This document shows, piece after piece, positions 17,943-43,186 of a DNA stretch of 64,000 nt. Both the position numbers and the translations under genes were made by a program. The notes beneath the pieces were generated by a model. It had not been told where the DNA came from. It did not search any database and worked only from the letters and a program-made list of their open reading frames with translations. Numbering within the stretch: position 1 is the first letter of the stretch; each line of letters opens with the position of its first letter. Source of the DNA: Shigella phage ESh28. Location: the sequence record ON528738, one strand, 5' to 3'.

Positions 17943-17967
17943 GGGGACCCTAGAGGTCCCCTTTTTT
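17943..17967 (+). terminator. intrinsic terminator after gene 32
   Basis: GGGGACC-CTAGA-GGTCCCC followed by TTTTTT. Confidence 0.75.
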
Positions 17968-17992
17968 ATTTCAAAAATTTTTTCACAAAACG

Positions 17993-18022
17993 GTTTACAC
18001 CCTTGTCCTTCCATGGTACTAT
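17993..18022 (+). promoter_or_regulatory. early-type promoter (-35 GTTTAC, -10 TACTAT)
   Basis: GTTTAC 17993-17998, TACTAT 18017-18022; flanks near-identical to 1301-1360. Confidence 0.55.
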
Positions 18023-18065
18023 ACAACTATCGGCAATACTGCTGATGATTAAAGAAGAAAATAAT

Positions 18066-18337: not shown

Positions 18338-18703
18338 ATGTATATCGGTAAAAAGTATGAACTTGTTCCAAGACTTATTGATACATTTATTAATTATCGC
18401 CCACGTTCTAATTCAGCAATAGTTAAAATTATTCAAGAAAATGGCGGATGGTTTGAAGTTAAAGAAGCTTTCTTTGTTGATGGATTTAGAGTAATAAAAC
18501 ACATTGAATGCGCAAATGGAAAGCATTTTTACTTTAACGTTTGTGAAGACGAATTTCATTGTTTTCGTGAGTATAAAGAACCGACTTCTGAAGAAGATGA
18601 AGTCAAAGACAAAGTTTCTGGCGTAACAAAAATTCACTGCATTGTTGACGAAAACAATGTAGATGAAATCATTGAACTTTTGCGAAAAACTTTCAAAAAG
18701 TAG
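18338..18703 (+). CDS. hypothetical protein (121 aa)
   Basis: ATG with GAGGA SD. Confidence 0.5.
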   Translation: MYIGKKYELVPRLIDTFINYRPRSNSAIVKIIQENGGWFEVKEAFFVDGFRVIKHIECANGKHFYFNVCEDEFHCFREYKEPTSEEDEVKDKVSGVTKIHCIVDENNVDEIIELLRKTFKK

Positions 18704-18737
18704 TTTACAGAAGGGTAGTAGTGTGATACTATTACCC
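18704..18737 (+). promoter_or_regulatory. early-type promoter with -10 enclosed by an inverted repeat
   Basis: GTTTAC 18704-18709; TACTAT 18727-18732; inverted repeat GGGTAGT(18713-19)/ATTACCC(18731-37). Confidence 0.45.
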
Positions 18738-18841
18738 TATCAAAACTAATGGAGAAAAGAAAATGTTCGCACCTTATATTATGGCAGCAGTTATGTTGGT
18801 CTGTTTATATCTTTTGATTAAAGCTTGCTAAGGAGAATAAA

Positions 18842-25416: not shown

Positions 25417-27004
<1,588 letters not shown>

Positions 27005-27007
27005 GCT

Positions 27008-27063
27008 GTTTACAAGTCCCTCGTGTTGTGTTACAGTAGTCTTACTGACATAACATGAGGACT
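27008..27063 (+). promoter_or_regulatory. early-type promoter embedded in an SD-sequestering hairpin, upstream of alc (copy A)
   Basis: GTTTAC 27008-27013; -10-like TACAGT 27033-27038; inverted repeat AGTCCCTCGTGTT(27015-27)/AACATGAGGACT(27052-63) includes SD GAGGA. Confidence 0.5.
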
Positions 27064-27065
27064 TT

Positions 27066-27572
27066 ATGATGGATTTGCAGCTAATTACTACTGAAATGGT
27101 CGTTGAAGCATACGGTGATACTACAGATGGGATTTCTGTATTTAAAGGAAACCGTCGAGTTGGATATATCACCGATCTTAAGAAAGATTTAGCTAAGCAA
27201 GTCAAGCGGAAAACGACCATTAAAGAATATCGAAATCGTCGTCTTGAGCAAGCCCGTGATATGCTTCCTGATGCGGTTGAAGAGATGAAAGTCTTTTTAG
27301 AAAATCAGCTTGCGAAATATGATTGTGATGTATTTATTAATCAGACTCAACCTAATGTTCATATCAATAGTTGTAAATGCTATATCATCGTTAATCCTTT
27401 GACTGGAAAGCATCGTCTTGGAATTAGTAATCCAAATCGTAGTGCATCGGATATGGCAGAAGATGTTGAGGCATGCTTTAAAATTTCTAAATCTCCAGCT
27501 GAACATCATATTTTAATTAACGGTCTTTCTCAAGACGATATTATAGAGGTTATTAAAACTTTATGCATGTAA
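27066..27572 (+). CDS. alc: Alc, inhibitor of host transcription
   Basis: 168 aa (MMDLQLITTEMVVEAYGD...); true start may be second ATG at 27069. Confidence 0.8.
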   Translation: MMDLQLITTEMVVEAYGDTTDGISVFKGNRRVGYITDLKKDLAKQVKRKTTIKEYRNRRLEQARDMLPDAVEEMKVFLENQLAKYDCDVFINQTQPNVHINSCKCYIIVNPLTGKHRLGISNPNRSASDMAEDVEACFKISKSPAEHHILINGLSQDDIIEVIKTLCM

Positions 27573-27916
27573 GTAATTTTACAGCTGGATTGCTATTACT
27601 TGTAATAGCATTTGGCGGAACATCTATTATTTTAAAAAATAAGGTAGAAAGATTAGAAACATCAGTTACTGAAATTACAAAAACGGCCAATGAAAACGCT
27701 TTAGCATTAAATAATTTGCGAATTCAGTATAATTATATTGATGCGATGAATAATAAAAATCGTGAGGCAATTGCTGCTATTGAGCGTGAAAATGAAAAGC
27801 TGCGCAAAGACGCAAAGAAGGCGGATGTGGTGGCTCGTAAGCCAGGATTGGTTGAAAAACAAATCAACAACTCCTTCAACAAGTTCGCAGAAGACATCCA
27901 GGACCTTTCTAAATGA
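27563..27916 (+). CDS. probable i-spanin (Rz-like), pseT.3 position
   Basis: 117 aa; N-terminal TM (AGLLLLVIAFGGTSIIL) then coiled-coil-like region; overlaps next ORF, typical of spanin pairs. Confidence 0.6.
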   Translation: MHVSNFTAGLLLLVIAFGGTSIILKNKVERLETSVTEITKTANENALALNNLRIQYNYIDAMNNKNREAIAAIERENEKLRKDAKKADVVARKPGLVEKQINNSFNKFAEDIQDLSK

Positions 27917-28212
27917 TTAGACTATCAGCAGTAATATTATCTATCGGTCTTCTAGCTGGTTGTTCGACAAAGCCTCTAGAAGTAAAGAAAGAAACAGTTC
28001 ATCCTAATTGGCCTGTACAGATAAAGTCATATGATGAAGCTAAACTATCTTGGCAAGTTAAAGTTATTGATGGTAAAGCTTGGGTCGGTATGCCATTTGA
28101 AGATTCCCAGGAATTTCGTATTTGGCTTAATGATGTAAAACGATATGTACATGACCAAAAAACTATGATATGTTATTATCGTCAAGAGTTAAAAGAGGAT
28201 AAATGTAAATGA
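27913..28212 (+). CDS. probable o-spanin lipoprotein (Rz1-like), pseT.2 position
   Basis: 99 aa; signal peptide with lipobox LLAGC; ATG overlaps upstream stop. Confidence 0.6.
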   Translation: MIRLSAVILSIGLLAGCSTKPLEVKKETVHPNWPVQIKSYDEAKLSWQVKVIDGKAWVGMPFEDSQEFRIWLNDVKRYVHDQKTMICYYRQELKEDKCK

Positions 28213-28439
28213 TTTCATGGCATCAATTTGAACATCTCAAAGGATTGATTTATGAATCCGAGATGGCTGCAATGATTTATGGACGCCAGATTCAGCGGTT
28301 AGAATCTTTACCTCCAACTAATGATGTTTTATTAGCTCAATCCCGTGCTAATCTCAAAAATGAATATCAAAATAAGTGGGGTAAAGCATCTAAAGACCTG
28401 CATGATTATATTCAATCATTGGTTGAGAAAAATAAATGA
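28209..28439 (+). CDS. hypothetical protein (76 aa)
   Basis: ATG overlapping upstream stop. Confidence 0.45.
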   Translation: MISWHQFEHLKGLIYESEMAAMIYGRQIQRLESLPPTNDVLLAQSRANLKNEYQNKWGKASKDLHDYIQSLVEKNK

Positions 28440-28726
28440 AAACTCTGTTAGAACGTTATATTGAATGTTCAGACCGTTACATTGATGCATGCCGTGAAAA
28501 TGTATCAAGCATTAGCCAAGATATTGAATATGCTAAAGCTTTAGATGATGCTGGTAAAACCCTGCGAAAAGAAGCGAAAGCTCGTGGGCTTGATATGTAT
28601 CAGCTTAAAAATCACATGATAAAATTTATTTCATCCAATGTTCAGAGTAAATCAGCGAATCAATCAACAGCTGAATTGTACAAAGGACGGCGTGAGCATA
28701 ATATTCGTATTCTTGAAGTTTTTTAG
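28436..28726 (+). CDS. hypothetical protein (96 aa)
   Basis: ATG overlapping upstream stop. Confidence 0.45.
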   Translation: MKTLLERYIECSDRYIDACRENVSSISQDIEYAKALDDAGKTLRKEAKARGLDMYQLKNHMIKFISSNVQSKSANQSTAELYKGRREHNIRILEVF

Positions 28727-28733
28727 GAATTAA

Positions 28734-29638
<905 letters not shown>

Positions 29639-29639
<1 letters not shown>

Positions 29640-29836
29640 TGGCTTGGCACCATGAAACTTGGGCTATTGTTATTGTAAATAGCGGTTTAGTTGGTACTAG
29701 TAATGGGCAATTTTGTGTATTTACTAGTGAAAATAGAGCATGGGAGGAATGCCTTAAATTAAGAGAAAAGAATCCTGATGTTGAACTAGTAGTAAAGAAA
29801 ACTAAACTGCCTTTACCATGGAAAACGTATGAATAA
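29639..29836 (+). CDS. hypothetical protein (65 aa)
   Basis: ATG 29639 overlapping pseT stop (TAATG); track start 29609 lies inside pseT. Confidence 0.35.
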
Positions 29837-30029
29837 CCTAGAAAAGATTTATCGTCTTTGTGATAAAATTGAAAAAGAAAAGAAATATCTATTTTGTCTA
29901 TGGCCTATTGTTGACGGAAGAGTAGGCCTAGATGTTCTTGATTATGAAACAGAAGACAAAGTAGATGGCGCAACTTTTGATAACGCTTTGGATGTTATTG
30001 ATTGGCTTGAAGAAAATTATGTGAGGTAA
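29829..30029 (+). CDS. hypothetical protein (66 aa)
   Basis: ATG start; ORF from track. Confidence 0.4.
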   Translation: MNNLEKIYRLCDKIEKEKKYLFCLWPIVDGRVGLDVLDYETEDKVDGATFDNALDVIDWLEENYVR

Positions 30030-30031
30030 AT

Positions 30032-30307
30032 ATGTTTCCGACTTACTCTAAAATCGTAGAAGTAGTGTTTAGCCAAATTATCGCTAATAATATGTTTGAA
30101 AAACTTGATAACGCAGCTGAGCTTCGAATCCATGCTCAAGTGACTCATGTATTGAACACTTTGCTTCCAGACCAGGTGGATTCTGTTGCCATCACGTTGT
30201 ATCCAGGTTCCGCGCATATCATTGTCGTATTCGGTCTTGATGCTGAGCTAGTCATCAAAGGCGATATTCGCTTTGAATCACAGACATCAGAATTCAAAGC
30301 AATTTAA
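30032..30307 (+). CDS. hypothetical protein (91 aa)
   Basis: ATG with GAGG SD. Confidence 0.45.
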   Translation: MFPTYSKIVEVVFSQIIANNMFEKLDNAAELRIHAQVTHVLNTLLPDQVDSVAITLYPGSAHIIVVFGLDAELVIKGDIRFESQTSEFKAI

Positions 30308-30308
30308 A

Positions 30309-30347
30309 GTTTACTTTACGGTAGAGTTGTGATATTATAGCTCTACC
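30309..30347 (+). promoter_or_regulatory. early-type promoter with -10 enclosed by an inverted repeat
   Basis: GTTTAC 30309-30314; TATTAT 30333-30338; inverted repeat GGTAGAG(30320-26)/CTCTACC(30341-47). Confidence 0.45.
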
Positions 30348-30368
30348 AAAACAAACGAGGAAATTGAA

Positions 30369-30896
30369 ATGAGCGAATGGTTTGAAGAAGATAAGGTTTA
30401 TCGCTTTAAAACTGGGTATAAAGATATTTTTAATGAAACTTGCGGGGCTAATAAACGAATTGCCCAGTTTATTGGGGAAAATTCATTTAAAGTAAAAATA
30501 GATCCTGCGAAAAATGTTATTAGCATTAAACGTGAAATTGATGATTGTTGGTATAAAGCTGTTGATGTAATGGGTGAATCCTATAAAGTTAGCCCGTTAT
30601 TTTCAATTGCTTATATGTTAGAATATTCTTTTTTCGAAGAAGTTCAAAAAGATGATTCTGTAAGTAAATTTGAAATTAAAACTGATAAAGAAATTAAGTG
30701 GAAAGTAGTAGGTATTACTGGTTGTATGTTCTATATCTATGCTCAAACTGATACGAAGGAAGAAGCTAAAAAGAAAGCTCTAGAATATCTTGAAGAGCAT
30801 GAAGAAGGTCCGGTAATGATTACCCAAGATGCTGAATTAGTTTCTGTCAAATTAGTTAAAAATGTTGAAAGTAAGGAGCTAGGATCAACATGCTAA
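30369..30896 (+). CDS. hypothetical protein (175 aa)
   Basis: ATG with GAGGA SD; preceded by promoter-in-hairpin element. Confidence 0.5.
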   Translation: MSEWFEEDKVYRFKTGYKDIFNETCGANKRIAQFIGENSFKVKIDPAKNVISIKREIDDCWYKAVDVMGESYKVSPLFSIAYMLEYSFFEEVQKDDSVSKFEIKTDKEIKWKVVGITGCMFYIYAQTDTKEEAKKKALEYLEEHEEGPVMITQDAELVSVKLVKNVESKELGSTC

Positions 30897-31126
30897 GCGA
30901 AAAACCAATTACTGTTAAAGAATTCCAAGAAAAAGTTAAACTATTTGCTCAAGAATTGGTAAATAAGGTTTCTGTACGATTTCCTGAAACGTCGGTTCGT
31001 GTTATTACCGAAACTCCTCGTTCGGTATTAGTAATTGTGAATCCAGGTGATGGTGACCAAATAACACATCTCAAATTGGATTTTGATGGATTAGTTGAAG
31101 CACAAAGGGTGTATGGCGTACTATGA
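30890..31126 (+). CDS. hypothetical protein (78 aa)
   Basis: ATG with AGGAGC SD; overlaps upstream stop. Confidence 0.45.
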   Translation: MLSEKPITVKEFQEKVKLFAQELVNKVSVRFPETSVRVITETPRSVLVIVNPGDGDQITHLKLDFDGLVEAQRVYGVL

Positions 31127-31461
31127 TGAATTTAACTGATATAATTGATAATTGTCTTGAAAATGATACTGGCGATCATAGAGCGCTTGACTCTGAAACA
31201 GCAAAGTTCATTAGAATAACTTTAATGAATGATACTCTGGTGAATAGTATTCATCCTTCTGTGTATGATGCTATTATTGTGACGAAGTATCCGGTTGAGC
31301 TTCACAAAAAGATGGTTGGCGCAATTTTTATTGATAAGAAAAACCGCTTTAAAGATGGGCAGAATATAATTAGTTCTGTTATTAAAAGTATAACTAAACT
31401 TCGTCACGAAATTTATCGTGTTGAAACTGCTAAATCTGCTTATCTGGTGATTATGAAATGA
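31123..31461 (+). CDS. hypothetical protein (112 aa)
   Basis: ATG overlapping upstream stop. Confidence 0.45.
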   Translation: MMNLTDIIDNCLENDTGDHRALDSETAKFIRITLMNDTLVNSIHPSVYDAIIVTKYPVELHKKMVGAIFIDKKNRFKDGQNIISSVIKSITKLRHEIYRVETAKSAYLVIMK

Positions 31462-32039
31462 AAGCGAGTACAGTACTTCAAATTGCATATTTAGTATCAC
31501 AAGAATCAAAATGTTGCTCCTGGAAAGTAGGAGCAGTAATTGAAAAGAATGGACGTATTATTTCTACTGGATATAATGGTTCACCTGCAGGTGGTGTGAA
31601 CTGCTGTGATTATGCTGCTGAGCAAGGTTGGTTGCTGAATAAGCCTAAACATACTATCATTCAAGGTCATAAGCCTGAATGTGTATCGTTTGGTTCAACT
31701 GATCGTTTTGTATTGGCGAAAGAACATCGTAGCGCGCACTCTGAATGGTCGTCTAAAAATGAAATTCATGCTGAACTAAATGCGATTTTGTTTGCTGCAC
31801 GAAACGGTTCTTCAATTGAAGGTGCTACTATGTATGTAACACTTTCTCCTTGCCCAGATTGTGCAAAAGCAATAGCTCAATCTGGAATTAAAAAGCTGGT
31901 TTATTGTGAAACATACGATAAAAATAAACCTGGCTGGGATGATATTCTGCGAAATGCAGGTATTGAAGTGTTTAATGTTCCTAAGAAAAACTTAAATAAG
32001 TTAAACTGGGAAAATATCAACGAATTCTGTGGTGAATAA
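31458..32039 (+). CDS. cd: dCMP deaminase
   Basis: 193 aa; zinc-binding deaminase motifs HAELNAI and SPCPDCAKAI; recalled T4 Cd. Confidence 0.85.
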   Translation: MKASTVLQIAYLVSQESKCCSWKVGAVIEKNGRIISTGYNGSPAGGVNCCDYAAEQGWLLNKPKHTIIQGHKPECVSFGSTDRFVLAKEHRSAHSEWSSKNEIHAELNAILFAARNGSSIEGATMYVTLSPCPDCAKAIAQSGIKKLVYCETYDKNKPGWDDILRNAGIEVFNVPKKNLNKLNWENINEFCGE

Positions 32040-32278
32040 TGAAATTTCGTTTGGTACAGCTCACAGCAATTAGTTCTTATTCCAACGAGAACATTTCATT
32101 TGCTGTAGAGTATAAGAAGTATTTTTTCTCTAAATGGAAGCAGTATTATAAGTCAAACTGGGTTTGTATTGATAGACCACATAGTTGGAAATCTGATTTA
32201 GAAAAATGCCAAAAATTACTTTCCACTCTTAAAGAACGTGGAACAACTCATATTAAAACTGTAATAGGTAGTAAATAA
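32039..32278 (+). CDS. hypothetical protein (79 aa)
   Basis: ATG overlapping cd stop. Confidence 0.45.
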   Translation: MKFRLVQLTAISSYSNENISFAVEYKKYFFSKWKQYYKSNWVCIDRPHSWKSDLEKCQKLLSTLKERGTTHIKTVIGSK

Positions 32279-32587
32279 ATGAAACTGACGACTGAACAAA
32301 AAGTAGCAATTCGTGAAATTTTGAAAACTAAATTGTCCATGGGTGTTTCAAACGTAGTTTTTGAAAAGTCTGATGGTACTATTCGTACTATGAAAGGTAC
32401 TCGTGACGCAGACTTTATGCCAACCATGCAAACTGGTAAATTGACTGAATCAACTCGGAAAGAATCTACTGACATGATTCCAGTATTTGATGTTGAACTT
32501 GGTGCATGGCGAGGTTTTTCTATTGACAAATTGATTTCTGTTAATGGTATGAAAGTTGAGCATTTACTCCAATTTATTGGTAAATAA
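32279..32587 (+). CDS. hypothetical protein (102 aa)
   Basis: ATG start; ORF from track. Confidence 0.5.
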   Translation: MKLTTEQKVAIREILKTKLSMGVSNVVFEKSDGTIRTMKGTRDADFMPTMQTGKLTESTRKESTDMIPVFDVELGAWRGFSIDKLISVNGMKVEHLLQFIGK

Positions 32588-32588
32588 A

Positions 32589-32613
32589 TGCTTTAAGAAT
32601 TATTTGTTATTAT
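32589..32613 (+). promoter_or_regulatory. MotA-dependent middle promoter for gene 31
   Basis: MotA box AAATGCTTTA (TGCTTTA 32589-32595), 12-nt spacer, -10 TATTAT 32608-32613. Confidence 0.6.
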
Positions 32614-32643
32614 TAATTCATCTGTTAACAAAAAGGAAAAACG

Positions 32644-32979
32644 ATGTCTGAAGTACAACAGCTACCAATTCGTGCTGTCGGTGAGTATGTTATTTTAGTT
32701 TCTGAACCCGCACAAGCCGGTGATGAAGAAGTTACAGAATCAGGACTTATTATCGGTAAACGTGTTCAAGGTGAAGTTCCTGAACTGTGTGTAGTTCACT
32801 CTGTCGGTCCTGATGTTCCTGAAGGTTTCTGCGAAGTTGGTGATTTGACTTCTCTTCCAGTTGGTCAAATTCGAAATGTTCCGCATCCTTTTGTAGCTCT
32901 GGGTCTTAAGCAGCCAAAAGAAATTAAACAAAAATTCGTTACTTGTCACTATAAAGCTATTCCGTGTCTTTATAAGTGA
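32644..32979 (+). CDS. 31: gp31 co-chaperonin (GroES analogue)
   Basis: 111 aa, [30 protein letters not shown]...; recalled T4 gp31; middle promoter upstream. Confidence 0.85.
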
Positions 32980-32987
32980 TATAAATA
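32980..32987 (+). promoter_or_regulatory. late promoter motif (TATAAATA) upstream of rIII
   Basis: Exact TATAAATA right after gene 31 stop; ~140-nt leader to rIII ATG, so assignment is tentative. Confidence 0.45.
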
Positions 32988-33126
32988 ATAATATGAATTG
33001 GGTGTCGGAATAATAAGTTAACCGAACAATTCTATGTGGTAGTCTACAACTGAGAGATCTGTCGAAAGAAGATGAAATTCAGAAGAACGTGACTACCGAG
33101 TTTTAATCTCTAACGAGAATTTTTAA

Positions 33127-33375
33127 ATGATTAAACAATTACAACACGCTCTTGAACTGCAACGAAACGCATGGAATAATGGTCACGAAAACTATGGCGC
33201 ATCTATTGATGTTGAAGCCGAAGCTCTTGAAATCCTGCGTTATTTCAAACATCTGAATCCTGCTCAAACTGCATTAGCTGCTGAGCTTCAGGAAAAAGAT
33301 GAACTTAAGTATGCTAAGCCTCTGGCTTCTGCTGCACGAAAAGCAGTTCGTCACTTTGTGGTAACACTGAAGTAA
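33127..33375 (+). CDS. rIII: rIII lysis-inhibition accessory protein
   Basis: 82 aa, MIKQLQHALELQRNAWNNGHENYGASIDVEAEALEILRYF; recalled T4 rIII. Confidence 0.8.
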   Translation: MIKQLQHALELQRNAWNNGHENYGASIDVEAEALEILRYFKHLNPAQTALAAELQEKDELKYAKPLASAARKAVRHFVVTLK

Positions 33376-33620
33376 TTTATTGGAGATTCACTGCCTTAGT
33401 GTGAGCTAAAATCGAGGAGCCATCGAACTGTCTGATTAATGATTTGCGAATCATTATAGTTTTAAGACCCCGGCAGTTTTACGGTGTACCTCTTGAATGT
33501 GAATGATGACGGGTTTATGGTTATCCTGGTCGTTAAATATCCAAAAACCTATGTTCCCCTTGAGGGCTTGCGCAGGCAATGCCAATAAGTCCTGCATTTT
33601 CATTTAAAAGAGAATTTATA

Positions 33621-33797
33621 ATGGCAAAACAAGCTAAAGCAAAGAAAGCAGTTGAAAAGAAAGTTGGTGATTCTAAACGCGCTGGCTACAAGCGTGGGTC
33701 GAACTCTCGTATCAATCAAACTGTTGAGAAGATCATGCGCCGAGCACGTGCGGTTCTTCGAGATGATGCTTCTCGTTTTGGTAAGCAGAAAGCATAA
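33621..33797 (+). CDS. hypothetical small basic protein (58 aa)
   Basis: MAKQAKAKKAVEKKVGDSKRAGYKRGS...; followed by strong terminator; track start 33579 is an upstream ATG without SD. Confidence 0.4.
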   Translation: MAKQAKAKKAVEKKVGDSKRAGYKRGSNSRINQTVEKIMRRARAVLRDDASRFGKQKA

Positions 33798-33802
33798 GTT
33801 GA

Positions 33803-33826
33803 GGACTCCTTCGGGAGTCCTTTTTT
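33803..33826 (+). terminator. intrinsic terminator (UUCG tetraloop)
   Basis: GGACTCC-TTCG-GGAGTCC followed by TTTTTT. Confidence 0.75.
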
Positions 33827-33850
33827 ATTTTCCAAAGATTGCATAAAGTT

Positions 33851-33880
33851 GTTTACAGTATGGTTCCTTTGTGATAGTAT
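33851..33880 (+). promoter_or_regulatory. early-type promoter
   Basis: GTTTAC 33851-33856; -10-like TAGTAT 33875-33880; imperfect inverted repeat TCCTTTGTG/CACAAACAAAGGA reaches the SD. Confidence 0.45.
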
Positions 33881-33907
33881 TATCTTACACAAACAAAGGA
33901 GAATAAA

Positions 33908-34240
33908 ATGAAAACGATTAATCTGAACGCTGCAGTTAAAACTAAATGCTTCAATGGTAAATATGATGAAACTATGTGGTTCTTAATGGCAGTTGAAGGT
34001 GATATTATTGAAGTAGAAACAACAGAAGGTATGGGAACAGATTTCACCTTTACAATTCAAGTTCATAATTTCTTTACTGGTTGGATTTATGAATTGAATA
34101 CAGTAATCGTTGGAAAAATTGAACAAAATGAATTAGGTGAATGGTATTATGTTACAGCTCGCCAACGTGCCGAACGCTTAATTGAGAAGATGAAAAAAGT
34201 TGGTAAACTTGACATGCAGCATTGGAAAGTAGTAAAATAA
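33908..34240 (+). CDS. hypothetical protein (110 aa)
   Basis: ATG with AAGGAG SD. Confidence 0.5.
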   Translation: MKTINLNAAVKTKCFNGKYDETMWFLMAVEGDIIEVETTEGMGTDFTFTIQVHNFFTGWIYELNTVIVGKIEQNELGEWYYVTARQRAERLIEKMKKVGKLDMQHWKVVK

Positions 34241-34242
34241 TT

Positions 34243-34282
34243 GTTTACTTTGGTACAGGATATGATATTATATACCTGTACC
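34243..34282 (+). promoter_or_regulatory. early-type promoter with -10 enclosed by a perfect 8-bp inverted repeat
   Basis: GTTTAC 34243-34248; TATTAT 34266-34271; GGTACAGG(34252-59)/CCTGTACC(34275-82). Confidence 0.5.
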
Positions 34283-34308
34283 GCAATTAAACATCTCGGA
34301 GAATAAAA

Positions 34309-34674
34309 ATGAACTACATCAACTTTGAGCGTAAATATGTTTCTAATGGTATTGCAGGTTCTATTGATACTATCTGCCTTTGGAAACATCAAAATGGATC
34401 AGTATGCGAAATTGAACAGTATATGACTCCTAACTACGTTTATATGCGATTTGAAAATGGCATCACGGTTTCAATCACAATGGAAGGTTCCAACTTCAAA
34501 ATCGCTCTGGATGATGATTTTCGTCAACGCGATTTAGGGACCCATCCTTGCTGGAATGGCGCTAATCGTAAGCTTCTGGTTAAAACTTGGATTCGTCATA
34601 TTTTGAGTAACAGAGCTAAACCTGAGCATCTTGAAGCAATCTTTGATGTAGTTCTCAACGAATTTGATATTTAA
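34309..34674 (+). CDS. hypothetical protein (121 aa)
   Basis: ATG with GGAG SD. Confidence 0.5.
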   Translation: MNYINFERKYVSNGIAGSIDTICLWKHQNGSVCEIEQYMTPNYVYMRFENGITVSITMEGSNFKIALDDDFRQRDLGTHPCWNGANRKLLVKTWIRHILSNRAKPEHLEAIFDVVLNEFDI

Positions 34675-34683
34675 AATAAAATG

Positions 34684-34699
34684 AGGGGCTTCGGCCCCT
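34684..34699 (+). other. UUCG-tetraloop RNA hairpin without U-tract
   Basis: AGGGGC-TTCG-GCCCCT followed directly by SD GAGGA of the next ORF. Confidence 0.45.
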
Positions 34700-34715
34700 T
34701 ACTGAGGAAAATACT

Positions 34716-35003
34716 ATGTTTATGACTACTTATTTTGACACCCGCAAAAATTTCTGTGAAGTGGTTTTCTCTAAGGCGCCTAAAGACCTTCCTGCTCATT
34801 TGCAACCTACCAGTGAATCGATTAAAAACTATGTTAATGTAGTCTGCCCTTTAGAGTTCCGTACTGTAAATGGGCGCGATACTTTAGCTATCACTAAACT
34901 CAATCGTGAAATTGACATTGACCCTTCAATTGCGCGTGAAATTAATATTTCTGATATTGGCGGCGGTAATGTTAAATCACACGGCTTTCAGATGAGGTTC
35001 TGA
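34716..35003 (+). CDS. hypothetical protein (95 aa)
   Basis: ATG with GAGGA SD. Confidence 0.45.
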   Translation: MFMTTYFDTRKNFCEVVFSKAPKDLPAHLQPTSESIKNYVNVVCPLEFRTVNGRDTLAITKLNREIDIDPSIAREINISDIGGGNVKSHGFQMRF

Positions 35004-35200
35004 TGAAATTCTTTTTAGGTCAAACTGTTGAATTAAAGGGAGTTGGTATACCTGGATTAATTTCTAAGGTTCTACCTCCATTTAAATGGAGTGGTGTTCA
35101 AATAAAAGAGGCTTATATTGTTTCCTGGGTAGATGGAAATGAAGACCTTCGTATGGGTGATGAATTATCTCCTATTTACGGATTAAAGGAATTAGTATGA
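35003..35200 (+). CDS. hypothetical protein (65 aa)
   Basis: ATG overlapping upstream stop. Confidence 0.4.
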   Translation: MKFFLGQTVELKGVGIPGLISKVLPPFKWSGVQIKEAYIVSWVDGNEDLRMGDELSPIYGLKELV

Positions 35201-35403
35201 ATATAATTAATAAGATTTTTGGAATTCAGTACATTAAGGTCACATATAAAGTAACAGATAAAAATCCATATACTGATGAACATGAAGAACCACAAGTTAA
35301 GTCTATTATATTAGAAAAGGACCCTAACTGGCCAGTTGAATTTCGTCTTCCTTGCTATGGTCATTGGGCTGATGTTGAAATTATAAGTATTGAAAATGCC
35401 TGA
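35197..35403 (+). CDS. hypothetical protein (68 aa)
   Basis: ATG overlapping upstream stop. Confidence 0.4.
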   Translation: MNIINKIFGIQYIKVTYKVTDKNPYTDEHEEPQVKSIILEKDPNWPVEFRLPCYGHWADVEIISIENA

Positions 35404-35854
35404 GTTAGAGATTAGAAGCAATTTTAGATGGCCATCGTGTGCATTAAGTAATTTCGCCCAATGGCCTTTTGTTATGGATGGTATCCAATTTGGAGGTCTT
35501 GAAGGATTTCTCCAAGGATGTAAGGTGAAAAATGTTGAACAGCAACGTCGTGTATTTGGGTTATCCGGGCTTGCCGCCCAACAAGCTGGAAGGTCTTATG
35601 CTAGAGCTCAGGACCGTGGGACCCTCTTCTGGCTCGGAGTTCCGTTTTCAAGATACTCTCCAGCGTGGAAAGAATTATACACAAATGCGTATTTTGAGGC
35701 AGCGATTCAAAACAAGGGCTTTCGTGATGCATTACTAGCCTCGAAAGGAAAAGTTTTGAAGCATAGCATGGCTAGTGGTCTAACAAAAGATGATACAATA
35801 CTAACCGAAGCTGAATTTATTGATGTGTTAAACCTATTAAGAGACTCTCTATGA
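35396..35854 (+). CDS. NADAR (YbiA-like, DUF1768) family protein, 30.3 position
   Basis: 152 aa from ATG 35396; motif LSNFAQWPFVMDGIQF resembles E. coli YbiA FSNFAAWPIKVDGKTW; track start 35390 is TTG. Confidence 0.65.
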   Translation: MPELEIRSNFRWPSCALSNFAQWPFVMDGIQFGGLEGFLQGCKVKNVEQQRRVFGLSGLAAQQAGRSYARAQDRGTLFWLGVPFSRYSPAWKELYTNAYFEAAIQNKGFRDALLASKGKVLKHSMASGLTKDDTILTEAEFIDVLNLLRDSL

Positions 35855-36483
35855 AGCCTACTATTTTGACTGATATTGACGGGGTGTGTTTAAGCTGGCA
35901 ATCGGGCCTTCCTTATTTTGCCCAAAAATATAATCTTCCGTTGGAACATATTTTAAAAATGATTCAGGACGAAAAATTTATTTCTCCTGGTAAGCTCTTT
36001 AATTGCGATGAAGAACTTGGTGTTAAATTAATCGAAAAGTATAATCGTTCAGATTTTATTCGTTATTTGTCTCCATATAAAGATGCTCTATGTGTAATTA
36101 ACAAATTAAAAGAAGATTATAATTTTGTAGCTGTTACAGCATTGGGTGATTCTATTGACGCTCTGCTGAATCGTCAATTTAATTTGAATGCTCTTTTTCC
36201 TGGTGCCTTCTCAGAAGTATTGATGTGTGGTCATGATTCTTCAAAAGAAGAGTTGTTCAAAAAGGCAAAAGAGAAATATAACGTAATTTGTTATATTGAC
36301 GATCTCGCTCACCACTGCGATCACGCGAGTGAAATATTAAATGTTCCTGTTTATTGGATGGCTCGAGGAGAGCGTGACAATATTCCAAAAACTGCGCAGC
36401 GAGTTTATACATGGAATGATGTAGAGAATAAGCTTTTCCATCGAAGGAAAATAAAGAAAGTTTTGATAGTGAAAAAGTTATAA
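35851..36483 (+). CDS. HAD-superfamily hydrolase, probable 5'(3')-deoxyribonucleotidase-like (30.2 position)
   Basis: 210 aa; HAD motif I ILTDIDGV and motif IV ICYIDD; ATG overlaps upstream stop. Confidence 0.6.
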   Translation: MKPTILTDIDGVCLSWQSGLPYFAQKYNLPLEHILKMIQDEKFISPGKLFNCDEELGVKLIEKYNRSDFIRYLSPYKDALCVINKLKEDYNFVAVTALGDSIDALLNRQFNLNALFPGAFSEVLMCGHDSSKEELFKKAKEKYNVICYIDDLAHHCDHASEILNVPVYWMARGERDNIPKTAQRVYTWNDVENKLFHRRKIKKVLIVKKL

Positions 36484-36500
36484 AAGATGTAATTGAGAAG

Positions 36501-36686
36501 ATGATTAAAAACGATTCTTTTCCTTGGAACACTACCTGGAGAACTCCTGGATTTAATCCTTATAATCTATATCATCCATATCAGACGCATCCGTTTCAGA
36601 CATGGAACTATATTAAACCCGGTGGCATAGAGTATTTGTATAATAGACCTACTAGTGGTGATAATATTTTCCAAGGAGCATTCTAA
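36501..36686 (+). CDS. hypothetical protein (61 aa)
   Basis: ATG start; ORF from track. Confidence 0.35.
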   Translation: MIKNDSFPWNTTWRTPGFNPYNLYHPYQTHPFQTWNYIKPGGIEYLYNRPTSGDNIFQGAF

Positions 36687-36955
36687 TGTTTGTCGTTCAC
36701 ACTATTTATGAAAATGAAGGTAATACTACACGTGATTACGGTCACGTAAATCAATTTTTTAGATGCAATCCAGAATTTCGAGCTCAAAAAGACGAACGAA
36801 TTTTTAAAAAATGTGTAGAGCAAGGTTTCATTTACGTCAAGCACTGGATGCAAGGAAATAAAGTTAGAACCACGTACCACAAGTCTTTGACTGAGCTTAA
36901 TGATGAATTGATTTATAATAGAGCTGTAAACCAAACTCTAAAGGATGAACAATGA
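36686..36955 (+). CDS. hypothetical protein (89 aa)
   Basis: ATG with AAGGAG SD. Confidence 0.45.
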   Translation: MFVVHTIYENEGNTTRDYGHVNQFFRCNPEFRAQKDERIFKKCVEQGFIYVKHWMQGNKVRTTYHKSLTELNDELIYNRAVNQTLKDEQ

Positions 36956-38415
36956 TTCTTAAAATTCTGAACGAAATAGCATCTATTGGTTCAACTAAGC
37001 AGAAGCAAGCAATTCTTGAAAAGAATAAAGATAATGAATTGCTTAAACGAGTATATCGTCTGACTTATTCTCGTGGGTTACAGTATTATATCAAGAAATG
37101 GCCTAAACCTGGTATTGCTACCCAGAGTTTTGGAATGTTGACTCTTACCGATATGCTTGACTTCATTGAATTCACGTTAGCTACTCGGAAATTGACCGGA
37201 AATGCGGCAATTGAGGAATTAACTGGATATATTGCTGACGGTAAAAAAGATGATGTTGAAGTTTTGCGTCGGGTGATGATGCGAGACCTTGAATGCGGTG
37301 CTTCAGTATCTATTGCAAACAAAGTTTGGCCAGGTTTAATTCCTGAACAACCTCAAATGCTGGCAAGTTCTTATGATGAAAAAGGCATTAATAAGAATAT
37401 CAAATTTCCAGCATTTGCCCAATTAAAAGCTGATGGAGCTCGATGCTTTGCTGAAGTCAGAGGTGATGAATTAGATGATGTTCGTCTTTTATCACGAGCT
37501 GGTAATGAATATCTAGGATTAGATCTTCTCAAGGAAGAGTTAATCAAAATGACTGCAGAAGCTCGCCAGATTCATCCAGAAGGTGTGTTAATTGATGGCG
37601 AATTGGTATACCATGAGCAAGTTGAAAAGGAACCAGAAGGCCTAGATTTTCTTTTTGATGCTTATCCTGAAATTAGTAAAGCTAAAGAATTCGCCGAAGT
37701 AGCTGAATCACGTACTACTTCTAATGGAATCGCTAATAAATCTTTAAAGGGAACCATTTCCGAAAAAGAAGCACAATGCATGAAGTTTCAGGTCTGGGAC
37801 TATGTTCCATTAGTAGAAATATATGGTCTTCCAGCATTTCGTTTAAAATATGATGTACGTTTTTCTAAACTAGAACAAATGACATCAGGCTATGATAAAG
37901 TAATTTTAATTGAAAACCAGGTAGTAAATAACCTAGATGAAGCTAAGGTAATTTATAAAAAGTATATTGACCAAGGTCTTGAAGGTATTATTCTCAAAAA
38001 TATCGATGGATTATGGGAAAATGCTCGTTCAAAAAATCTTTATAAATTTAAAGAAGTAATTGATGTTGATTTAAAAATTGTAGGAATTTATCCTCACCGT
38101 AAAGACCCTACTAAAGCGGGTGGATTTATTCTTGAGTCAGAGTGTGGAAAAATTAAAGTAAATGCTGGTTCAGGCTTAAAAGATAAAGCTGGTGTAAAAT
38201 CGCATGAACTTGACCGTACTCGCATTATGGAAAACCAAAATTATTATATTGGAAAAATTCTAGAGTGCGAATGCAACGGTTGGTTAAAATCTGATGGCCG
38301 CACTGATTACGTTAAATTATTTCTTCCGATTGCGATTCGTTTACGTGAAGATAAAACTAAAGCTAATACATTCGAGGATGTATTTGGCGATTTTCATGAG
38401 GTAACTGGTTTATGA
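36952..38415 (+). CDS. 30: ATP-dependent DNA ligase
   Basis: 487 aa (T4 ligase length); MILKILNEIASIGSTKQKQAILEKNKDNELLK; ligase motif QLKADGARC. Confidence 0.9.
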   Translation: MILKILNEIASIGSTKQKQAILEKNKDNELLKRVYRLTYSRGLQYYIKKWPKPGIATQSFGMLTLTDMLDFIEFTLATRKLTGNAAIEELTGYIADGKKDDVEVLRRVMMRDLECGASVSIANKVWPGLIPEQPQMLASSYDEKGINKNIKFPAFAQLKADGARCFAEVRGDELDDVRLLSRAGNEYLGLDLLKEELIKMTAEARQIHPEGVLIDGELVYHEQVEKEPEGLDFLFDAYPEISKAKEFAEVAESRTTSNGIANKSLKGTISEKEAQCMKFQVWDYVPLVEIYGLPAFRLKYDVRFSKLEQMTSGYDKVILIENQVVNNLDEAKVIYKKYIDQGLEGIILKNIDGLWENARSKNLYKFKEVIDVDLKIVGIYPHRKDPTKAGGFILESECGKIKVNAGSGLKDKAGVKSHELDRTRIMENQNYYIGKILECECNGWLKSDGRTDYVKLFLPIAIRLREDKTKANTFEDVFGDFHEVTGL

Positions 38416-38600
38416 AAGCTTACTTAGAAACAATTGTCATTGCTCAAAAAGAAGGTGGAGATGTTTCTACTTCTGTATCACAAGTCATTCTCGAATTTGT
38501 AGATGCATATGCTTACAATAAATTTACAGAAACATTTGATGCCTATGAAAAAGGTCCAAAGTTTGAAATATACCGTACTCTCTTACCACTAGATTACTAA
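38412..38600 (+). CDS. hypothetical protein (62 aa)
   Basis: ATG overlapping ligase stop. Confidence 0.4.
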   Translation: MKAYLETIVIAQKEGGDVSTSVSQVILEFVDAYAYNKFTETFDAYEKGPKFEIYRTLLPLDY

Positions 38601-38616
38601 AGGCCTTCGGGCCTTT
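38599..38616 (+). terminator. UUCG-tetraloop hairpin, weak terminator
   Basis: AAAGGCC-TTCG-GGCCTTT followed by AATTTTA. Confidence 0.5.
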
Positions 38617-38621
38617 AATTT

Positions 38622-38629
38622 TATAAATA
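38622..38629 (+). promoter_or_regulatory. late promoter (TATAAATA) for alt
   Basis: Exact TATAAATA 21 nt upstream of alt ATG. Confidence 0.7.
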
Positions 38630-38649
38630 GAATAAACACTAGAGAGGAT

Positions 38650-40746
38650 ATGATGGAACTCATTACAGAATTATTTGACGAAGATACTACTCTTCCGATT
38701 ACAAACTTAAATCCAAAGAAGAAAATACCACAAATTTTTTCAGTTCATGTTGATGACGCAATTGAACAACCAGGCTTTCGTTTATGTACCTATACATCTG
38801 GAGGTGATACTAATCGCGATTTAAAGATGGGCGATAAAATGATGCATATTGTTCCTTTTACATTAACTGCTAAAGGTTCAATTGCTAAATTAAAAGGTCT
38901 TGGTCCAAGCCCAATTAATTATATCAATTCAGTTTTTACTGTTGCAATGCAAACAATGCGCCAGTATAAAATTGATGCTTGTATGCTTCGTATTCTTAAG
39001 TCTAAAACTGCTGGCCAAGCTCGACAAATTCAAGTTATTGCTGATAGACTTATCCGTAGTCGTTCAGGTGGCAGATACGTCCTTCTTAAGGAACTCTGGG
39101 ATTATGATAAAAAGTATGCATATATTCTTATACATCGCAAAAATGTATCACTAGAAGACATTCCAGGAGTTCCGGAAATTAGTACCGAGCTCTTTACTAA
39201 AGTTGAATCGAAGGTCGGTGATGTTTATATCAATAAAGATACTGGGGCTCAAGTAACTAAAAATGAGGCAATTGCAGCATCTATTGCACAAGAAAATGAT
39301 AAACGTTCTGACCAAGCTGTAATCGTTAAAGTTAAAATTTCACGTAGAGCAATTGCGCAAAGTCAATCATTGGAATCTTCTAGATTTGAAAGTGAATTAT
39401 TCCAGAAGTATGAATCTACCGCAGCTAATTTCAATAAACCTGCTACAGCTCCTTTAATTCCTGAAGCAGAAGAAATGAAGCTTGGAATTAATTCATTAGC
39501 TTCTAAAACTAAGGCAGCAAAAATTATTGCTGAAGGAACTGCAGATGAACTTCATTATGACTATAAATTCTTTTCAAAAAGTGAGGTTAATGAAGTTTCT
39601 GAAAAAATTAAAGATGTAATTCTTAATGCGATTAAAAATGAACCAACTACTTCAATAAAATGTTTAGAGAAATACGCAGCAGCTGTTAATCAATTATTTG
39701 AAGAATATAAAGATAACTGGCTTGATAAACATAATAAAACTCGTAAAGGACAGACAGATGAAGTCTGGGAAGAAATAACTAAAAATTCCTGGAACGCAGC
39801 AAAAACTAAATTCCTCAAACGAATGATTTATAGCTTTTCTGGAATTGGTGCAGGTCCAATGATTGATATTACTATTGCCCGTGATGGTTCTAAATATACT
39901 CCATCACAAAAGCGCGGCATTAGAGAGTATTGTGGTTCAGGATATACTGACATCAATAATCTTCTTTTAGGACGCTACAATCCAGAACGATATGATGTAA
40001 TGAGTGAAAAAGAAATTGAATCTGCTATAAATAACTTAGATTCAGCTTTTGAAAATGGTGACCGTATACCAGAAGGCATTACAGTTTATCGTGCTCAAAG
40101 TATGACTGCTCCTATATATGAAGCGTTAGTTAAAAATAAAGTGTTCTACTTCAGAAATTTTGTATCTACTTCTTTAACTCCTATCATTTTTGGACGTTTT
40201 GGAATCACACATGCTGGTATTGGTCTTTTAGAACCAGAAGCTCGCAATGAATTAACAGTTGATAAAAATGAAGAAGGAATAACTATTAATCCAAACGAAA
40301 TAAGAGCGTATAAAGAAAATCCTGAATACGTTAAAGTTCAAATAGGATGGGCAATTGATGGAGCTCATAAAGTTAATGTTGTATATCCAGGAAGTCTCGG
40401 AATAGCAACAGAAGCTGAAGTTATTCTACCGCGTGGATTGATGGTCAAAGTTAATAAAATAACTGATGCTTCTAATAATGACGGAACAACATCTAATAAT
40501 ACAAAACTCATTCAAGCTGAAGTTATGACCACGGAAGAGCTCACCGAATCGGTAATCTATGACGGAGACCATTTAATGGAAACCGGTGAAGTAGTTGCAA
40601 TGACAGGTGATATTGAAATAGACGACAGAGTTGACTTTGCATCATTTGTTTCATCAAATGTTAAACAGAAAGTAGAATCATCTCTTGGAATTATTGCGTC
40701 TTGCATAGATATTACAAACATGCCTTACAAGTTCGTTCAAGGATAA
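38650..40746 (+). CDS. alt: Alt ADP-ribosyltransferase (virion-packaged; modifies host RNA polymerase)
   Basis: 698 aa; ART-like R-S-E elements (YRAQ, FVSTSL, EAEVILPRG); late promoter TATAAATA 28 nt upstream. Confidence 0.8.
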   Translation: MMELITELFDEDTTLPITNLNPKKKIPQIFSVHVDDAIEQPGFRLCTYTSGGDTNRDLKMGDKMMHIVPFTLTAKGSIAKLKGLGPSPINYINSVFTVAMQTMRQYKIDACMLRILKSKTAGQARQIQVIADRLIRSRSGGRYVLLKELWDYDKKYAYILIHRKNVSLEDIPGVPEISTELFTKVESKVGDVYINKDTGAQVTKNEAIAASIAQENDKRSDQAVIVKVKISRRAIAQSQSLESSRFESELFQKYESTAANFNKPATAPLIPEAEEMKLGINSLASKTKAAKIIAEGTADELHYDYKFFSKSEVNEVSEKIKDVILNAIKNEPTTSIKCLEKYAAAVNQLFEEYKDNWLDKHNKTRKGQTDEVWEEITKNSWNAAKTKFLKRMIYSFSGIGAGPMIDITIARDGSKYTPSQKRGIREYCGSGYTDINNLLLGRYNPERYDVMSEKEIESAINNLDSAFENGDRIPEGITVYRAQSMTAPIYEALVKNKVFYFRNFVSTSLTPIIFGRFGITHAGIGLLEPEARNELTVDKNEEGITINPNEIRAYKENPEYVKVQIGWAIDGAHKVNVVYPGSLGIATEAEVILPRGLMVKVNKITDASNNDGTTSNNTKLIQAEVMTTEELTESVIYDGDHLMETGEVVAMTGDIEIDDRVDFASFVSSNVKQKVESSLGIIASCIDITNMPYKFVQG

Positions 40747-40749
40747 ATC

Positions 40750-42807: not shown

Positions 42808-42862
42808 TTTACAAGTCCCTCATGTTGTGTTATAGTAGTCTTACTGACATAACATGAGGAAC
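42807..42862 (+). promoter_or_regulatory. early-type promoter embedded in an SD-sequestering hairpin (copy B, near-identical to 27008-27063)
   Basis: GTTTAC 42807-42812; TATAGT 42831-42836; inverted repeat CCTCATGTT(42818-26)/AACATGAGG(42851-59) includes SD GAGGA. Confidence 0.5.
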
Positions 42863-42867
42863 ACAAA

Positions 42868-43158
42868 ATGAAATCTTCTTTGCGCTTTTTAGGTCAAGAA
42901 CTCGTCGTTGAAGGCGTTATTCCCGCTGATAACGCTTTCAATGAAGCAGTTTACGATGAATTTATCAAAATTTTTGGAACAGATAAAAAGTTCGGAATTT
43001 TTCCTTCTGAAAATTTTTCAAAGCCAGAACAGACTGAAAGTATTTTTCAGGGTGTAGTAACAGGTAAATTTGAGTCAGAAGCTCCGGTAAAAATTGAGGT
43101 TTATATTGAAGAAACCTCTGTTGCTTCAGTTGCTGCTTTTATTTCATTCCGTAAATAA
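42868..43158 (+). CDS. hypothetical protein (96 aa)
   Basis: ATG with GAGGA SD; preceded by promoter-in-hairpin element. Confidence 0.45.
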   Translation: MKSSLRFLGQELVVEGVIPADNAFNEAVYDEFIKIFGTDKKFGIFPSENFSKPEQTESIFQGVVTGKFESEAPVKIEVYIEETSVASVAAFISFRK

Positions 43159-43162
43159 AAAC

Positions 43163-43184
43163 ATGGGGACCTTTCGGTCCCCAT
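43163..43184. terminator. bidirectional terminator between convergent ORF 42868-43158 and gene 54
   Basis: ATGGGGACC-TTTC-GGTCCCCAT perfect 9-bp stem. Confidence 0.6.
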
Positions 43185-43186
43185 TG

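Follow-up and report, generated by a model that had tools for sequence, protein, structure and literature searches.

Several genes of bacteriophage T4 (e, soc, 49 and I-TevI, and also I-TevII and segB), as well as the mobE gene of phage Aeh1, have the start region of their translation sequestered in RNA structures; the hairpin at gene e lowers lysozyme synthesis 100-fold (review by Uzan and Miller, PMC3014915). A second group of elements has been described from T4-like phages under the name PeSL (promoter-early stem-loop). According to the main text of the two papers on them (PMC2839356, PMC4122927), PeSLs are intergenic cassettes, repeated in the genome, in which a strong sigma-70-like early promoter and a stem are followed by a Shine-Dalgarno (SD) sequence and an ATG; the stem sits in the interval from the -35 to the -10 or overlaps the -10, and the PeSLs reported for the T4/PST pair have the consensus TTTACW-N17-TAYWAT. 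In the same text the authors (Arbiol et al. 2010; Comeau et al. 2014) give the stem the role of a terminator or attenuator and treat the cassettes as sites of recombination (PMC2839356, PMC4122927). The element analyzed here is a 54-nt promoter-hairpin-SD module that occurs twice in a 64,000-nt stretch of DNA from Shigella phage ESh28 (record ON528738; the whole stretch is called the window), once before alc, the gene for an inhibitor of host transcription, and once before alt.-3. The analysis shows a duplicated module, its hairpin, a match to an early promoter, the energetics, covariation of the arms and recurrence at other early genes; we hold with moderate confidence that the element is a PeSL-type cassette acting as a promoter-dependent translational gate, which would confine the translation of alc and alt.-3 to immediate-early transcripts.

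The module, its hairpin and the proposed gate

The window is Tequatrovirus DNA: the region compared, 26800-27300, is 100% identical to Shigella phage Sf21 and shares 96-99% identity with about 500 Tequatrovirus genomes, including T4, T2 and T6. The early genes are carried on the + strand, as are both copies of the module and the features placed around them below. Copy A (27008-27061) lies in the gene order denA, rnlA, alc, pseT.3. It begins 3 nt after the TAA stop codon (27002-27004) of the rnlA open reading frame (ORF; 25844-27004, annotated as RNA ligase A in Sf21) and precedes alc (27069-27572; Sf21 annotation; Pfam ALC, 4e-92), which has an alternative in-frame ATG at 27066. Copy B (42807-42860) lies between the gene of a 685-aa Alt-like ADP-ribosyltransferase (ORF 40750-42807), the second of two alt paralogs, whose TAG stop codon (42805-42807) overlaps the first base of the module, and alt.-3 (42868-43158), a DUF5498 gene with no assigned function. 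On the 3' side of alt.-3 there is a bidirectional terminator, followed by gene 54 on the opposite strand. Both copies are intergenic, copy A between the rnlA stop at 27004 and the alc ATG at 27066 or 27069, and copy B between the paralog stop at 42807 and the alt.-3 ATG at 42868.

The two copies are identical at 52 of 54 positions, with 0 such matches expected in shuffled sequence. The similarity is bounded exactly by the G of GTTTAC and the final A of GAGGA, and the flanks differ. Both mismatches keep the pairing: at module position 16 a G/A difference exchanges G.U for A-U, and at position 27 a C/T difference exchanges C-G for U.G. It is thus confirmed that the repeated promoter-hairpin-SD module is real and far beyond chance. 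An earlier note on this DNA had reported a repeat of about 56 bp with two mismatches at 42807-42862; the mismatches stand, the length is corrected to 54 nt ending at 42860, and the place of copy B after the second alt paralog and before alt.-3 is added. Homology of the downstream proteins was considered as the cause of the repeat and ruled out, Alc and Alt.-3 having no similarity and the repeat being confined to the -35-to-SD interval.

The promoter and the inverted repeat occupy the same nucleotides. In copy A, the -35 GTTTAC of the T4 early-promoter type (27008-27013) is followed by the 5' arm of the hairpin (27014-27038), which takes in the promoter spacer, with the anti-SD TCCCTC (27017-27022), and the -10 region; the extended -10, TGT-TACAGT, spans 27029-27037 (hexamer 27032-27037). 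The loop GTCT (27039-27042) separates this arm from the 3' arm (27043-27064), which includes the SD GAGGA (27057-27061). The corresponding parts of copy B are the -35 at 42807-42812, the -10 TATAGT at 42831-42836, the loop at 42838-42841 and the SD at 42856-42860. In both copies GAGGA sits 4-7 nt before an ATG. The description given in the earlier note, a GTTTAC/TA-AGT promoter inside a long inverted repeat before alc, with the alc SD in the downstream arm, is accurate in coordinates and in content.

Each copy matches the pattern of T4 early promoters. Copy A reads GTTTAC, 18 nt, TACAGT, equivalent to a 17-nt spacer counted from TTTACA, and copy B reads TTTACA-17-TATAGT; TG stands two bases upstream of both -10 hexamers, and T4 has TATAGT at the -10 position of copy A. 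The motif GTTTAC-N17/18-TAnnnT is matched 11 times in the window against 1.8 expected, and 10 of the 11 matches are on the + strand. Both -10 hexamers depart from the PeSL T4/PST consensus TAYWAT by a G at position 5, and promoter activity is a prediction. The late-promoter motif TATAAATA is absent from the element, the internal promoter being of the early sigma-70 type. By the geometry of the promoter consensus, transcription would start 7 nt after the -10, at A27044 in copy A (about position 136300 (-) of T4, NC_000866) and at A42843 in copy B. These positions are just 3' of the loop, past the whole 5' arm, so that RNA initiated at the promoter would carry the 3' arm alone.

Each copy folds as RNA into a hairpin of about 22 bp, with a minimum free energy of -25.7 kcal/mol (A) or -23.4 kcal/mol (B) and z-scores of -5.3 and -5.0; none of 200 shuffles was as stable. 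The 5' arm begins 1 nt after GTTTAC, and the helix encloses the -10 and the +1. RNAs that begin beyond the loop are left without structure (energies of -4.1 and -2.7 kcal/mol, with z about 0). Accessibility of the ribosome site was expressed as an opening cost, the ensemble cost of making the segment from -18 to +5 around the start codon single-stranded. The cost is 19-22 kcal/mol in read-through RNA, whether modeled with 150 nt of upstream context or as RNA starting at the -35, and 3-5 kcal/mol for RNA that begins at the predicted +1. In the fold predicted for upstream-initiated RNA, every one of the five SD bases is paired. The earlier note had proposed that read-through RNA folds and buries the SD while RNA from the internal promoter lacks the 5' arm, and had asked for folds with and without that arm; as far as computation goes, both the contrast in stability and that in opening cost bear it out. 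Rfam 15 covariance models gave no match at either copy (E <= 1, across 26500-43500), and a known RNA family was rejected on this ground.

The opening cost was calibrated on 37 early-type promoters (from T4 1-76.5 kb and the window) and on 104 genes that have no early promoter nearby. Among the 37, the two copies come first and second, with differences between the two RNAs of 17.3 and 16.3 kcal/mol. The top of the 104 control genes is occupied by published cases: gene 49 (15.8 kcal/mol), I-TevII (13.5), segB (12.1) and gene e (11.6). The measure thus recovers the known positives, and by it the alc/alt.-3 element is at least as strong. In this element, and likewise in T4 regB, G.U pairs and a bulge make the sense strand more stable than the antisense strand by 8-9 kcal/mol, which favors a role at the RNA level.

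The proposed gate would work as follows. The 5' arm with its anti-SD TCCCTC is encoded in the spacer and -10 of a strong sigma-70 promoter of the T4 early type, and the 3' arm with the GAGGA of alc (copy A) or alt.-3 (copy B) just past the predicted +1. RNA started upstream, by read-through from rnlA or alt in the delayed-early, middle or late mode, would contain both arms, fold, and bury the ribosome-binding site; RNA from the internal promoter would have the 3' arm only and stay open. The two genes would then be translated essentially only from their own immediate-early transcripts, and their translation would cease at early-promoter shutoff despite continued transcription. What we infer is where transcription starts, whether and in what amount read-through RNA is made, that its translation is blocked, and what purpose this serves; read-through from rnlA probably occurs, to judge by the absence of a canonical terminator. 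The computable parts of the earlier interpretation all hold, and the function it assigned to the element appears partly supported.

A MotA-box-like middle promoter (ATGCTTCCA, 12 nt, TACTAT) at about 25826-25856, just upstream of rnlA, would supply middle-mode read-through into alc. Both copies had been supposed to follow late-expressed genes; a late promoter upstream of rnlA was ruled out, TATAAATA being absent there and the MotA-box-like promoter standing in its place. The motif TATAAATA is present at alt, at 38622. There it follows immediately on a terminator hairpin (38598-38629 together), just upstream of the first alt, an arrangement that fits the late synthesis of packaged Alt.

T4 omics classes place alc, alt.-3 and regB under "early RNA / early protein", rnlA under "early RNA / late protein" and pseT.3 under "middle protein"; the RNA of alt.-1 and alt.-2 is classed as "middle", and Alt protein rises to the end of infection (PMC9697503). 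These classes fit an early-only translation of the gated genes within longer-lived transcription.

Conservation of the pairing and origin of copy B

The 54-mer occurs at 997 places in 499 phage records, nearly all of which carry exactly two copies. In the T4 genome (NC_000866), copy A is found in the gap from rnlA (136340) to alc (136275); copy B precedes alt.-3 and shares sequence with the end of alt.-2. Within Tequatrovirus, the variable positions are those of the bulge and the loop, wobble-compatible ones and those of the -10; one pair is seen as C27-G40, U27.G40 and U27-A40, the T4-type copy B having the U-A form.

The rnlA-alc spacers of other Tevenvirinae genera were gathered by tblastn and by a profile-based scan of IMG/VR, giving 33 distinct -35-to-ATG elements. 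The profile search was needed for the other genera, as a search of IMG/VR with a single Alc protein returned only Tequatrovirus. In most of these elements the order GTTTAC, anti-SD arm, -10, loop and SD arm is kept with different arm sequences; this is the case in Gelderlandvirus, Karamvirus, Moonvirus, Jiaodavirus, Bragavirus, Kanagawavirus, Kagamiyamavirus and further unclassified lineages. At alc of Karamvirus, for example, the 5' arm TCTCCATTTGGTTGTGT faces the 3' arm ACACTAACCAAATGGAGA, and in Gelderlandvirus TCTCCGTTTAGTT faces AACCAAACGGAGA. The arms are ATCCTCATCAG and CTGATGAGGAT in Jiaodavirus, AACCTCTCATTTT and AAAATGAGAGGTT in a first and CCCTCTCGTTTTTG and CAAAAACGAGAGG in a second variant of Bragavirus, ATCCCATTTTGTT and AACAAAATGGGGAT in Kanagawavirus, and TCCTCATTTTGTTG and CAACAAAATGAGGA in Kagamiyamavirus.

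Two tests were applied to the pairing. The first, free of alignment, paired each spacer with the 24 nt before its own ATG and before those of the other lineages. A spacer and its own start region form duplexes of -15 to -24 kcal/mol; the median across lineages is -9 to -14, and the own partner ranks first to fourth of 33, the few better partners being apparently those of near-identical relatives. The second measured covariation in an unfitted MAFFT alignment of 20 representatives. Of its cells, 76.7% pair, compared with 66.1 +/- 1.7 in shuffles (0/500 as high); both sides change in 10 of 13 pairs, the covariation score is 0.367 against 0.191 (again 0/500), and slid registers all score below the true one. 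By these comparisons the spacer-SD pairing is kept across genera by compensatory change.

Some lineages are built otherwise. Two of them (L048 and L064) have no such spacer/SD pairing. Gaprivervirus has a different arrangement with an extra alc-fragment ORF: in the VR7/VR20 type (L014, L037, L038, L067), a 78-aa ORF resembling the Alc N-terminus lies between rnlA and alc, with a GC-rich, terminator-like hairpin with a TGTACA loop upstream of it and a separate SD-masking stem, GGTTCCATCA / TGATGAGGACC, before it.

At alt.-3 the picture across genera is different. In other genera the alt-to-alt.-3 spacer has an early promoter with a small spacer hairpin (of the CCACAAGGATGTGG type) and without the alc-type stem. 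In Kanagawavirus Q7622 (L024), the promoter spacer pairs at -29 kcal/mol with the start-codon region of alt.-3 (ATGCGTTCATTC) and not with the SD, a different way of masking the same translation start region. Since the alc-type stem is widespread at alc and the alt.-3 promoter differs in the other genera, copy B is read as a Tequatrovirus-specific replacement. Its most likely origin is an event of ectopic recombination or gene conversion, in the ancestor of Tequatrovirus, that put the alc cassette in place of the alt.-3 promoter.

The region upstream of copy B has a history of its own. The window has two tandem alt (ADP-ribosyltransferase) paralogs at 38650-42807; the small ORFs alt.-1 and alt.-2 of T4 and RB55 correspond to the N-terminal remnant of the second paralog, from whose interior about 1.69 kb was deleted (about 41097-42787 in the window). 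This deletion ends 19 nt upstream of copy B, outside the element. A homology breakpoint at the element was therefore ruled out: the loss of similarity to the T4 type at that point is due to the internal deletion, and there is no crossover in the element.

Similar promoters at other early genes

The design is shared by T4 regB, where GTTTACTTTTCCTCTTGACTGTGGTATAAT...CAGTTAAGAGGAGAATAACATG folds at -24.1 kcal/mol (NC_000866 62741-62797, minus strand), and regB of four Kanagawavirus-like genomes likewise has an early promoter in an SD-masking hairpin (the regB elements are labelled L085, that of T4, and L026, L076, L078, L082 and L083). The SD masked at regB, GGAG, is also the motif cleaved by RegB. 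In the census of opening costs, T4 modB, nrdC.8, motB.2, denV and e.8 and a gp30.8-like gene of the window score high as well. Masking of the start region by upstream sequence, at 7 kcal/mol or more, is enriched in promoter-proximal genes, being found in 9 of 29 of them and in 8 of the 104 others (p = 0.0025 by Fisher's test and 0.0008 by the Mann-Whitney test). Independent lineages share an anti-SD motif (CCUC or CUCC) placed directly behind the -35, and the motif is present there at regB, modB, nrdC.8, motB.2 and denV as well.

Among the 10 early promoters on the + strand of the window, 6 have a significant spacer-anchored hairpin, which in 3 of the 6 reaches the SD. A weaker module is found at 33851-33910 (+) before the gp30.8-like gene (Pfam Phage_30_8); its spacer TTCCTTTGTG pairs with CACAAACAAAGGAG, which includes the SD, and the opening-cost difference is 9.2 kcal/mol. 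The promoters at 18703-18765, 30309-30371 and 34243-34311 have stable hairpins (z -3.5 to -4.5) with the 5' arm in the spacer and a 3' arm that covers the -10 and +1 and not the SD; the gating model does not explain them. The window has further repeats of other kinds. A 75-nt module, consisting of a T-rich terminator tail and an early promoter without an SD-masking stem, is repeated at 1287-1361 and 17957-18031 (79% identity, 16.7 kb apart; also 33819-33857), and a tandem direct duplication of 288 nt with 80% identity occupies 54229-54804.

It is possible, and we suggest it tentatively, that spacer-encoded anti-SD arms are a general conserved device of Tevenvirinae early promoters, each tying the translatability of the promoter-proximal gene to its own initiation. 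The candidates are alc, alt.-3, regB, modB, nrdC.8, motB.2, 30.8 and denV, and the device may extend to about a quarter to a third of T4 early promoters. It would then add a third built-in layer to early-gene shutoff, beside promoter inactivation and RegB cleavage: immediate-early proteins would stop being made at early-promoter shutoff, whatever read-through came later from upstream early, middle or late promoters. The wider set of T4 early promoters built alike (regB, modB, nrdC.8, motB.2 and 30.8), like the fit to PeSLs, is context that the earlier note did not have.

The gate itself, if it operates as proposed, has consequences for alc, through which T4 shuts off the transcription of its host, and for regB, which encodes the nuclease that inactivates early mRNAs. 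The sharpness with which immediate-early protein synthesis is switched off has been described as incompletely understood (PMC3014915). The gate would provide a purely cis-acting reason why immediate-early proteins are made only in the first minutes although their genes lie in transcription units that are active for longer, and would extend the paradigm of genes e, soc and 49 in the opposite temporal direction. Under the wider reading, the cassette would also be portable. A whole immediate-early-only programme would pass to a new gene with the copying of the cassette from alc to alt.-3 in Tequatrovirus, and likewise with that of a related cassette to regB in Kanagawavirus. PeSL cassettes would gain a function beyond termination and recombination. 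The 54-nt module could also serve as a compact natural part for promoter-specific translation in synthetic designs.

Alternatives and comparison with known systems

A number of observations weigh against the gate. In Tegunavirus TG1 and three other lineages (L045, L063, L052), a stable hairpin around the -10 ends before the SD, and Mosigvirus-like phages and two other lineages have a small spacer hairpin only. The property that is conserved may thus be a hairpin in read-through RNA and not the masking of the SD. Moreover, where the leader measures about 25 nt, geometry almost forces a long 3' arm onto the SD, which makes the inclusion of the SD weaker evidence. The difference in stability between sense and antisense strands is not significant across lineages (overall p = 0.16) and is reversed in Gelderlandvirus; the G.U strand asymmetry, strong as it is at this element, was therefore not kept as a proof that the constraint acts on the RNA. 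The timing classes from the omics data are coarse; an early promoter with an unstable mRNA would give the same ones, and an early promoter by itself might.

The main alternative is that the stem acts on upstream transcripts or on the processing or stability of RNA: it would terminate, attenuate or pause rnlA or alt transcription, serve as a 3' stability hairpin, or be an RNase III-type cleavage site, and the stem would overlap the SD simply because the intergenic space is short. We consider this rather unlikely as the explanation of the element, and such a role could coexist with gating. At about 22 bp, the stem has in principle the length that RNase III requires. Stems that stop short of the SD, as conserved in the TG1-type and L052 lineages and at the window promoters 18703, 30309 and 34243, speak for this alternative. 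The element also fits the PeSL layout, and in the main text of the PeSL work one stem of phage RB49 cut downstream lacZ expression about as much as rrnB T1 did, which likewise tells against the gate. In the GenBank annotation of phage ASO78A, the stem of copy B is labelled a rho-independent terminator, a WebGeSTer prediction. Copy A is followed by UUUAUGAU. Against this, the stem is rich in AU and lacks a conserved U-tract behind it, copy B being followed by AACACAAAAUG and the elements of other genera by AAAACGAAAUG, AUUAACAAUG and similar sequences, and a terminator scan passed over the element yet flagged true terminators nearby. The specific case of an intrinsic terminator was ruled out on these grounds, the tails being CUUUAUGAUG in copy A and AACACAAAAUG in copy B. 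The recurrent anti-SD motif (CCUC/CUCC) next to the -35 is left unexplained by an attenuator role.

That the repeat is a cassette of recombination or gene conversion, shuffled in the modular manner of PeSLs, and that its hairpin has no selected function in RNA, seems improbable to us. The exact limits of the A/B similarity, from the -35 to the SD between unrelated flanks and downstream proteins, suit such a cassette, as does the different promoter type at alt.-3 in other genera, which makes copy B a lineage-specific replacement. The cassette found at Kanagawavirus regB is moreover 81% similar to the Karamvirus/Gelderlandvirus alc cassette, and exchange through PeSLs and mini-circles are reported for RB49 and phi1 in the main text of the PeSL papers. 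Copying of this kind accounts for the duplication and not for the hairpin, whose arms covary across genera at the single-copy alc locus and whose pairing is kept by the A/B substitutions. The 997 places in 499 genomes, almost always two per genome, show no sign of A/B rearrangement, and the indel breakpoint in the alt paralog lies 19 nt upstream of copy B and not within the element. A deletion between the copies would also remove the essential T4 genes 30 and 31.

Least probable of all is a role of the inverted repeat as DNA, in which a cruciform or hairpin, or a structure-specific protein, would modulate initiation at the early promoter: the repeat is centered on the -10/+1, several early promoters have repeats around the -10 only, and the helix is pure Watson-Crick in most genera, so that both strands could fold (hence the asymmetry p of 0.16), but the sense strand is the more stable one by 8-9 kcal/mol here and at T4 regB, the arm sequences differ between lineages and so offer no common protein site, the alc arm reaches the SD in most genera, which a DNA role does not need, and we know of no precedent in T4 early transcription.

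The promoter-dependent gate, the reading that we prefer, can be set beside four known systems. Like an intrinsic terminator, the element is a stable hairpin right after a stop codon; it differs in its AU-rich stem without a conserved U-tract and in containing a promoter and an SD. Another parallel comes from outside the phages. In the "fold-back inhibition" of IS10/Tn10 (Davis, Simons and Kleckner 1985), the 5' segment of external read-through RNA reportedly pairs with the transposase ribosome-binding site, and RNA from the element's own promoter starts downstream of this segment and is translatable. That system differs in belonging to a bacterial insertion sequence with a weak promoter, in insulating the element from host transcription without temporal control, and in having no sequence relationship to the phage module.

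By its sequence, the element fits the structural definition of a PeSL: it is intergenic, has an early promoter with a stem over the -10 and an SD and ATG at the 3' end, and is repeated. PeSLs are also associated with variable (hyperplastic) regions and indels; here the window has two near-identical copies and at least four promoters of similar build, the neighboring indel breaks outside the element, and the 499 genomes almost always retain two copies and no more. It differs from the PeSLs in that SD masking and promoter-specific translation are not described in the main text of the PeSL papers, and in its AU-rich stem of about 22 bp, which is much longer than the G(n)-loop-C(n) stems that the same text gives for RB49. 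No description of a promoter-hairpin gate at alc or regB was found in the searchable literature; older subscription literature may mention it.

With T4 e, soc, 49 and I-TevI, the element shares the predicted behavior of its RNAs: the SD and/or AUG is helical in long transcripts, and RNA from a promoter in the 5' part of the structure lacks the 5' arm and is translated. The strength is comparable or greater here, the opening-cost difference being 16-17 kcal/mol at alc/alt.-3 against 11.6 at e and 15.8 at 49. In the known cases the internal promoters are late (gp55, TATAAATA) or middle ones, the gene is silent early, and the gate is proven; at alc/alt.-3 the 5' arm is built into the promoter spacer itself, and the gate is a prediction. 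Since the internal promoter here is an immediate-early sigma-70 promoter, the temporal logic would be inverted to "early only", and the element would be a variant of the e/soc/49 class and not a member of it. The alc/alt.-3 element is a PeSL-type cassette read in a new way and, at the same time, an early-promoter variant of the classic T4 mechanism.

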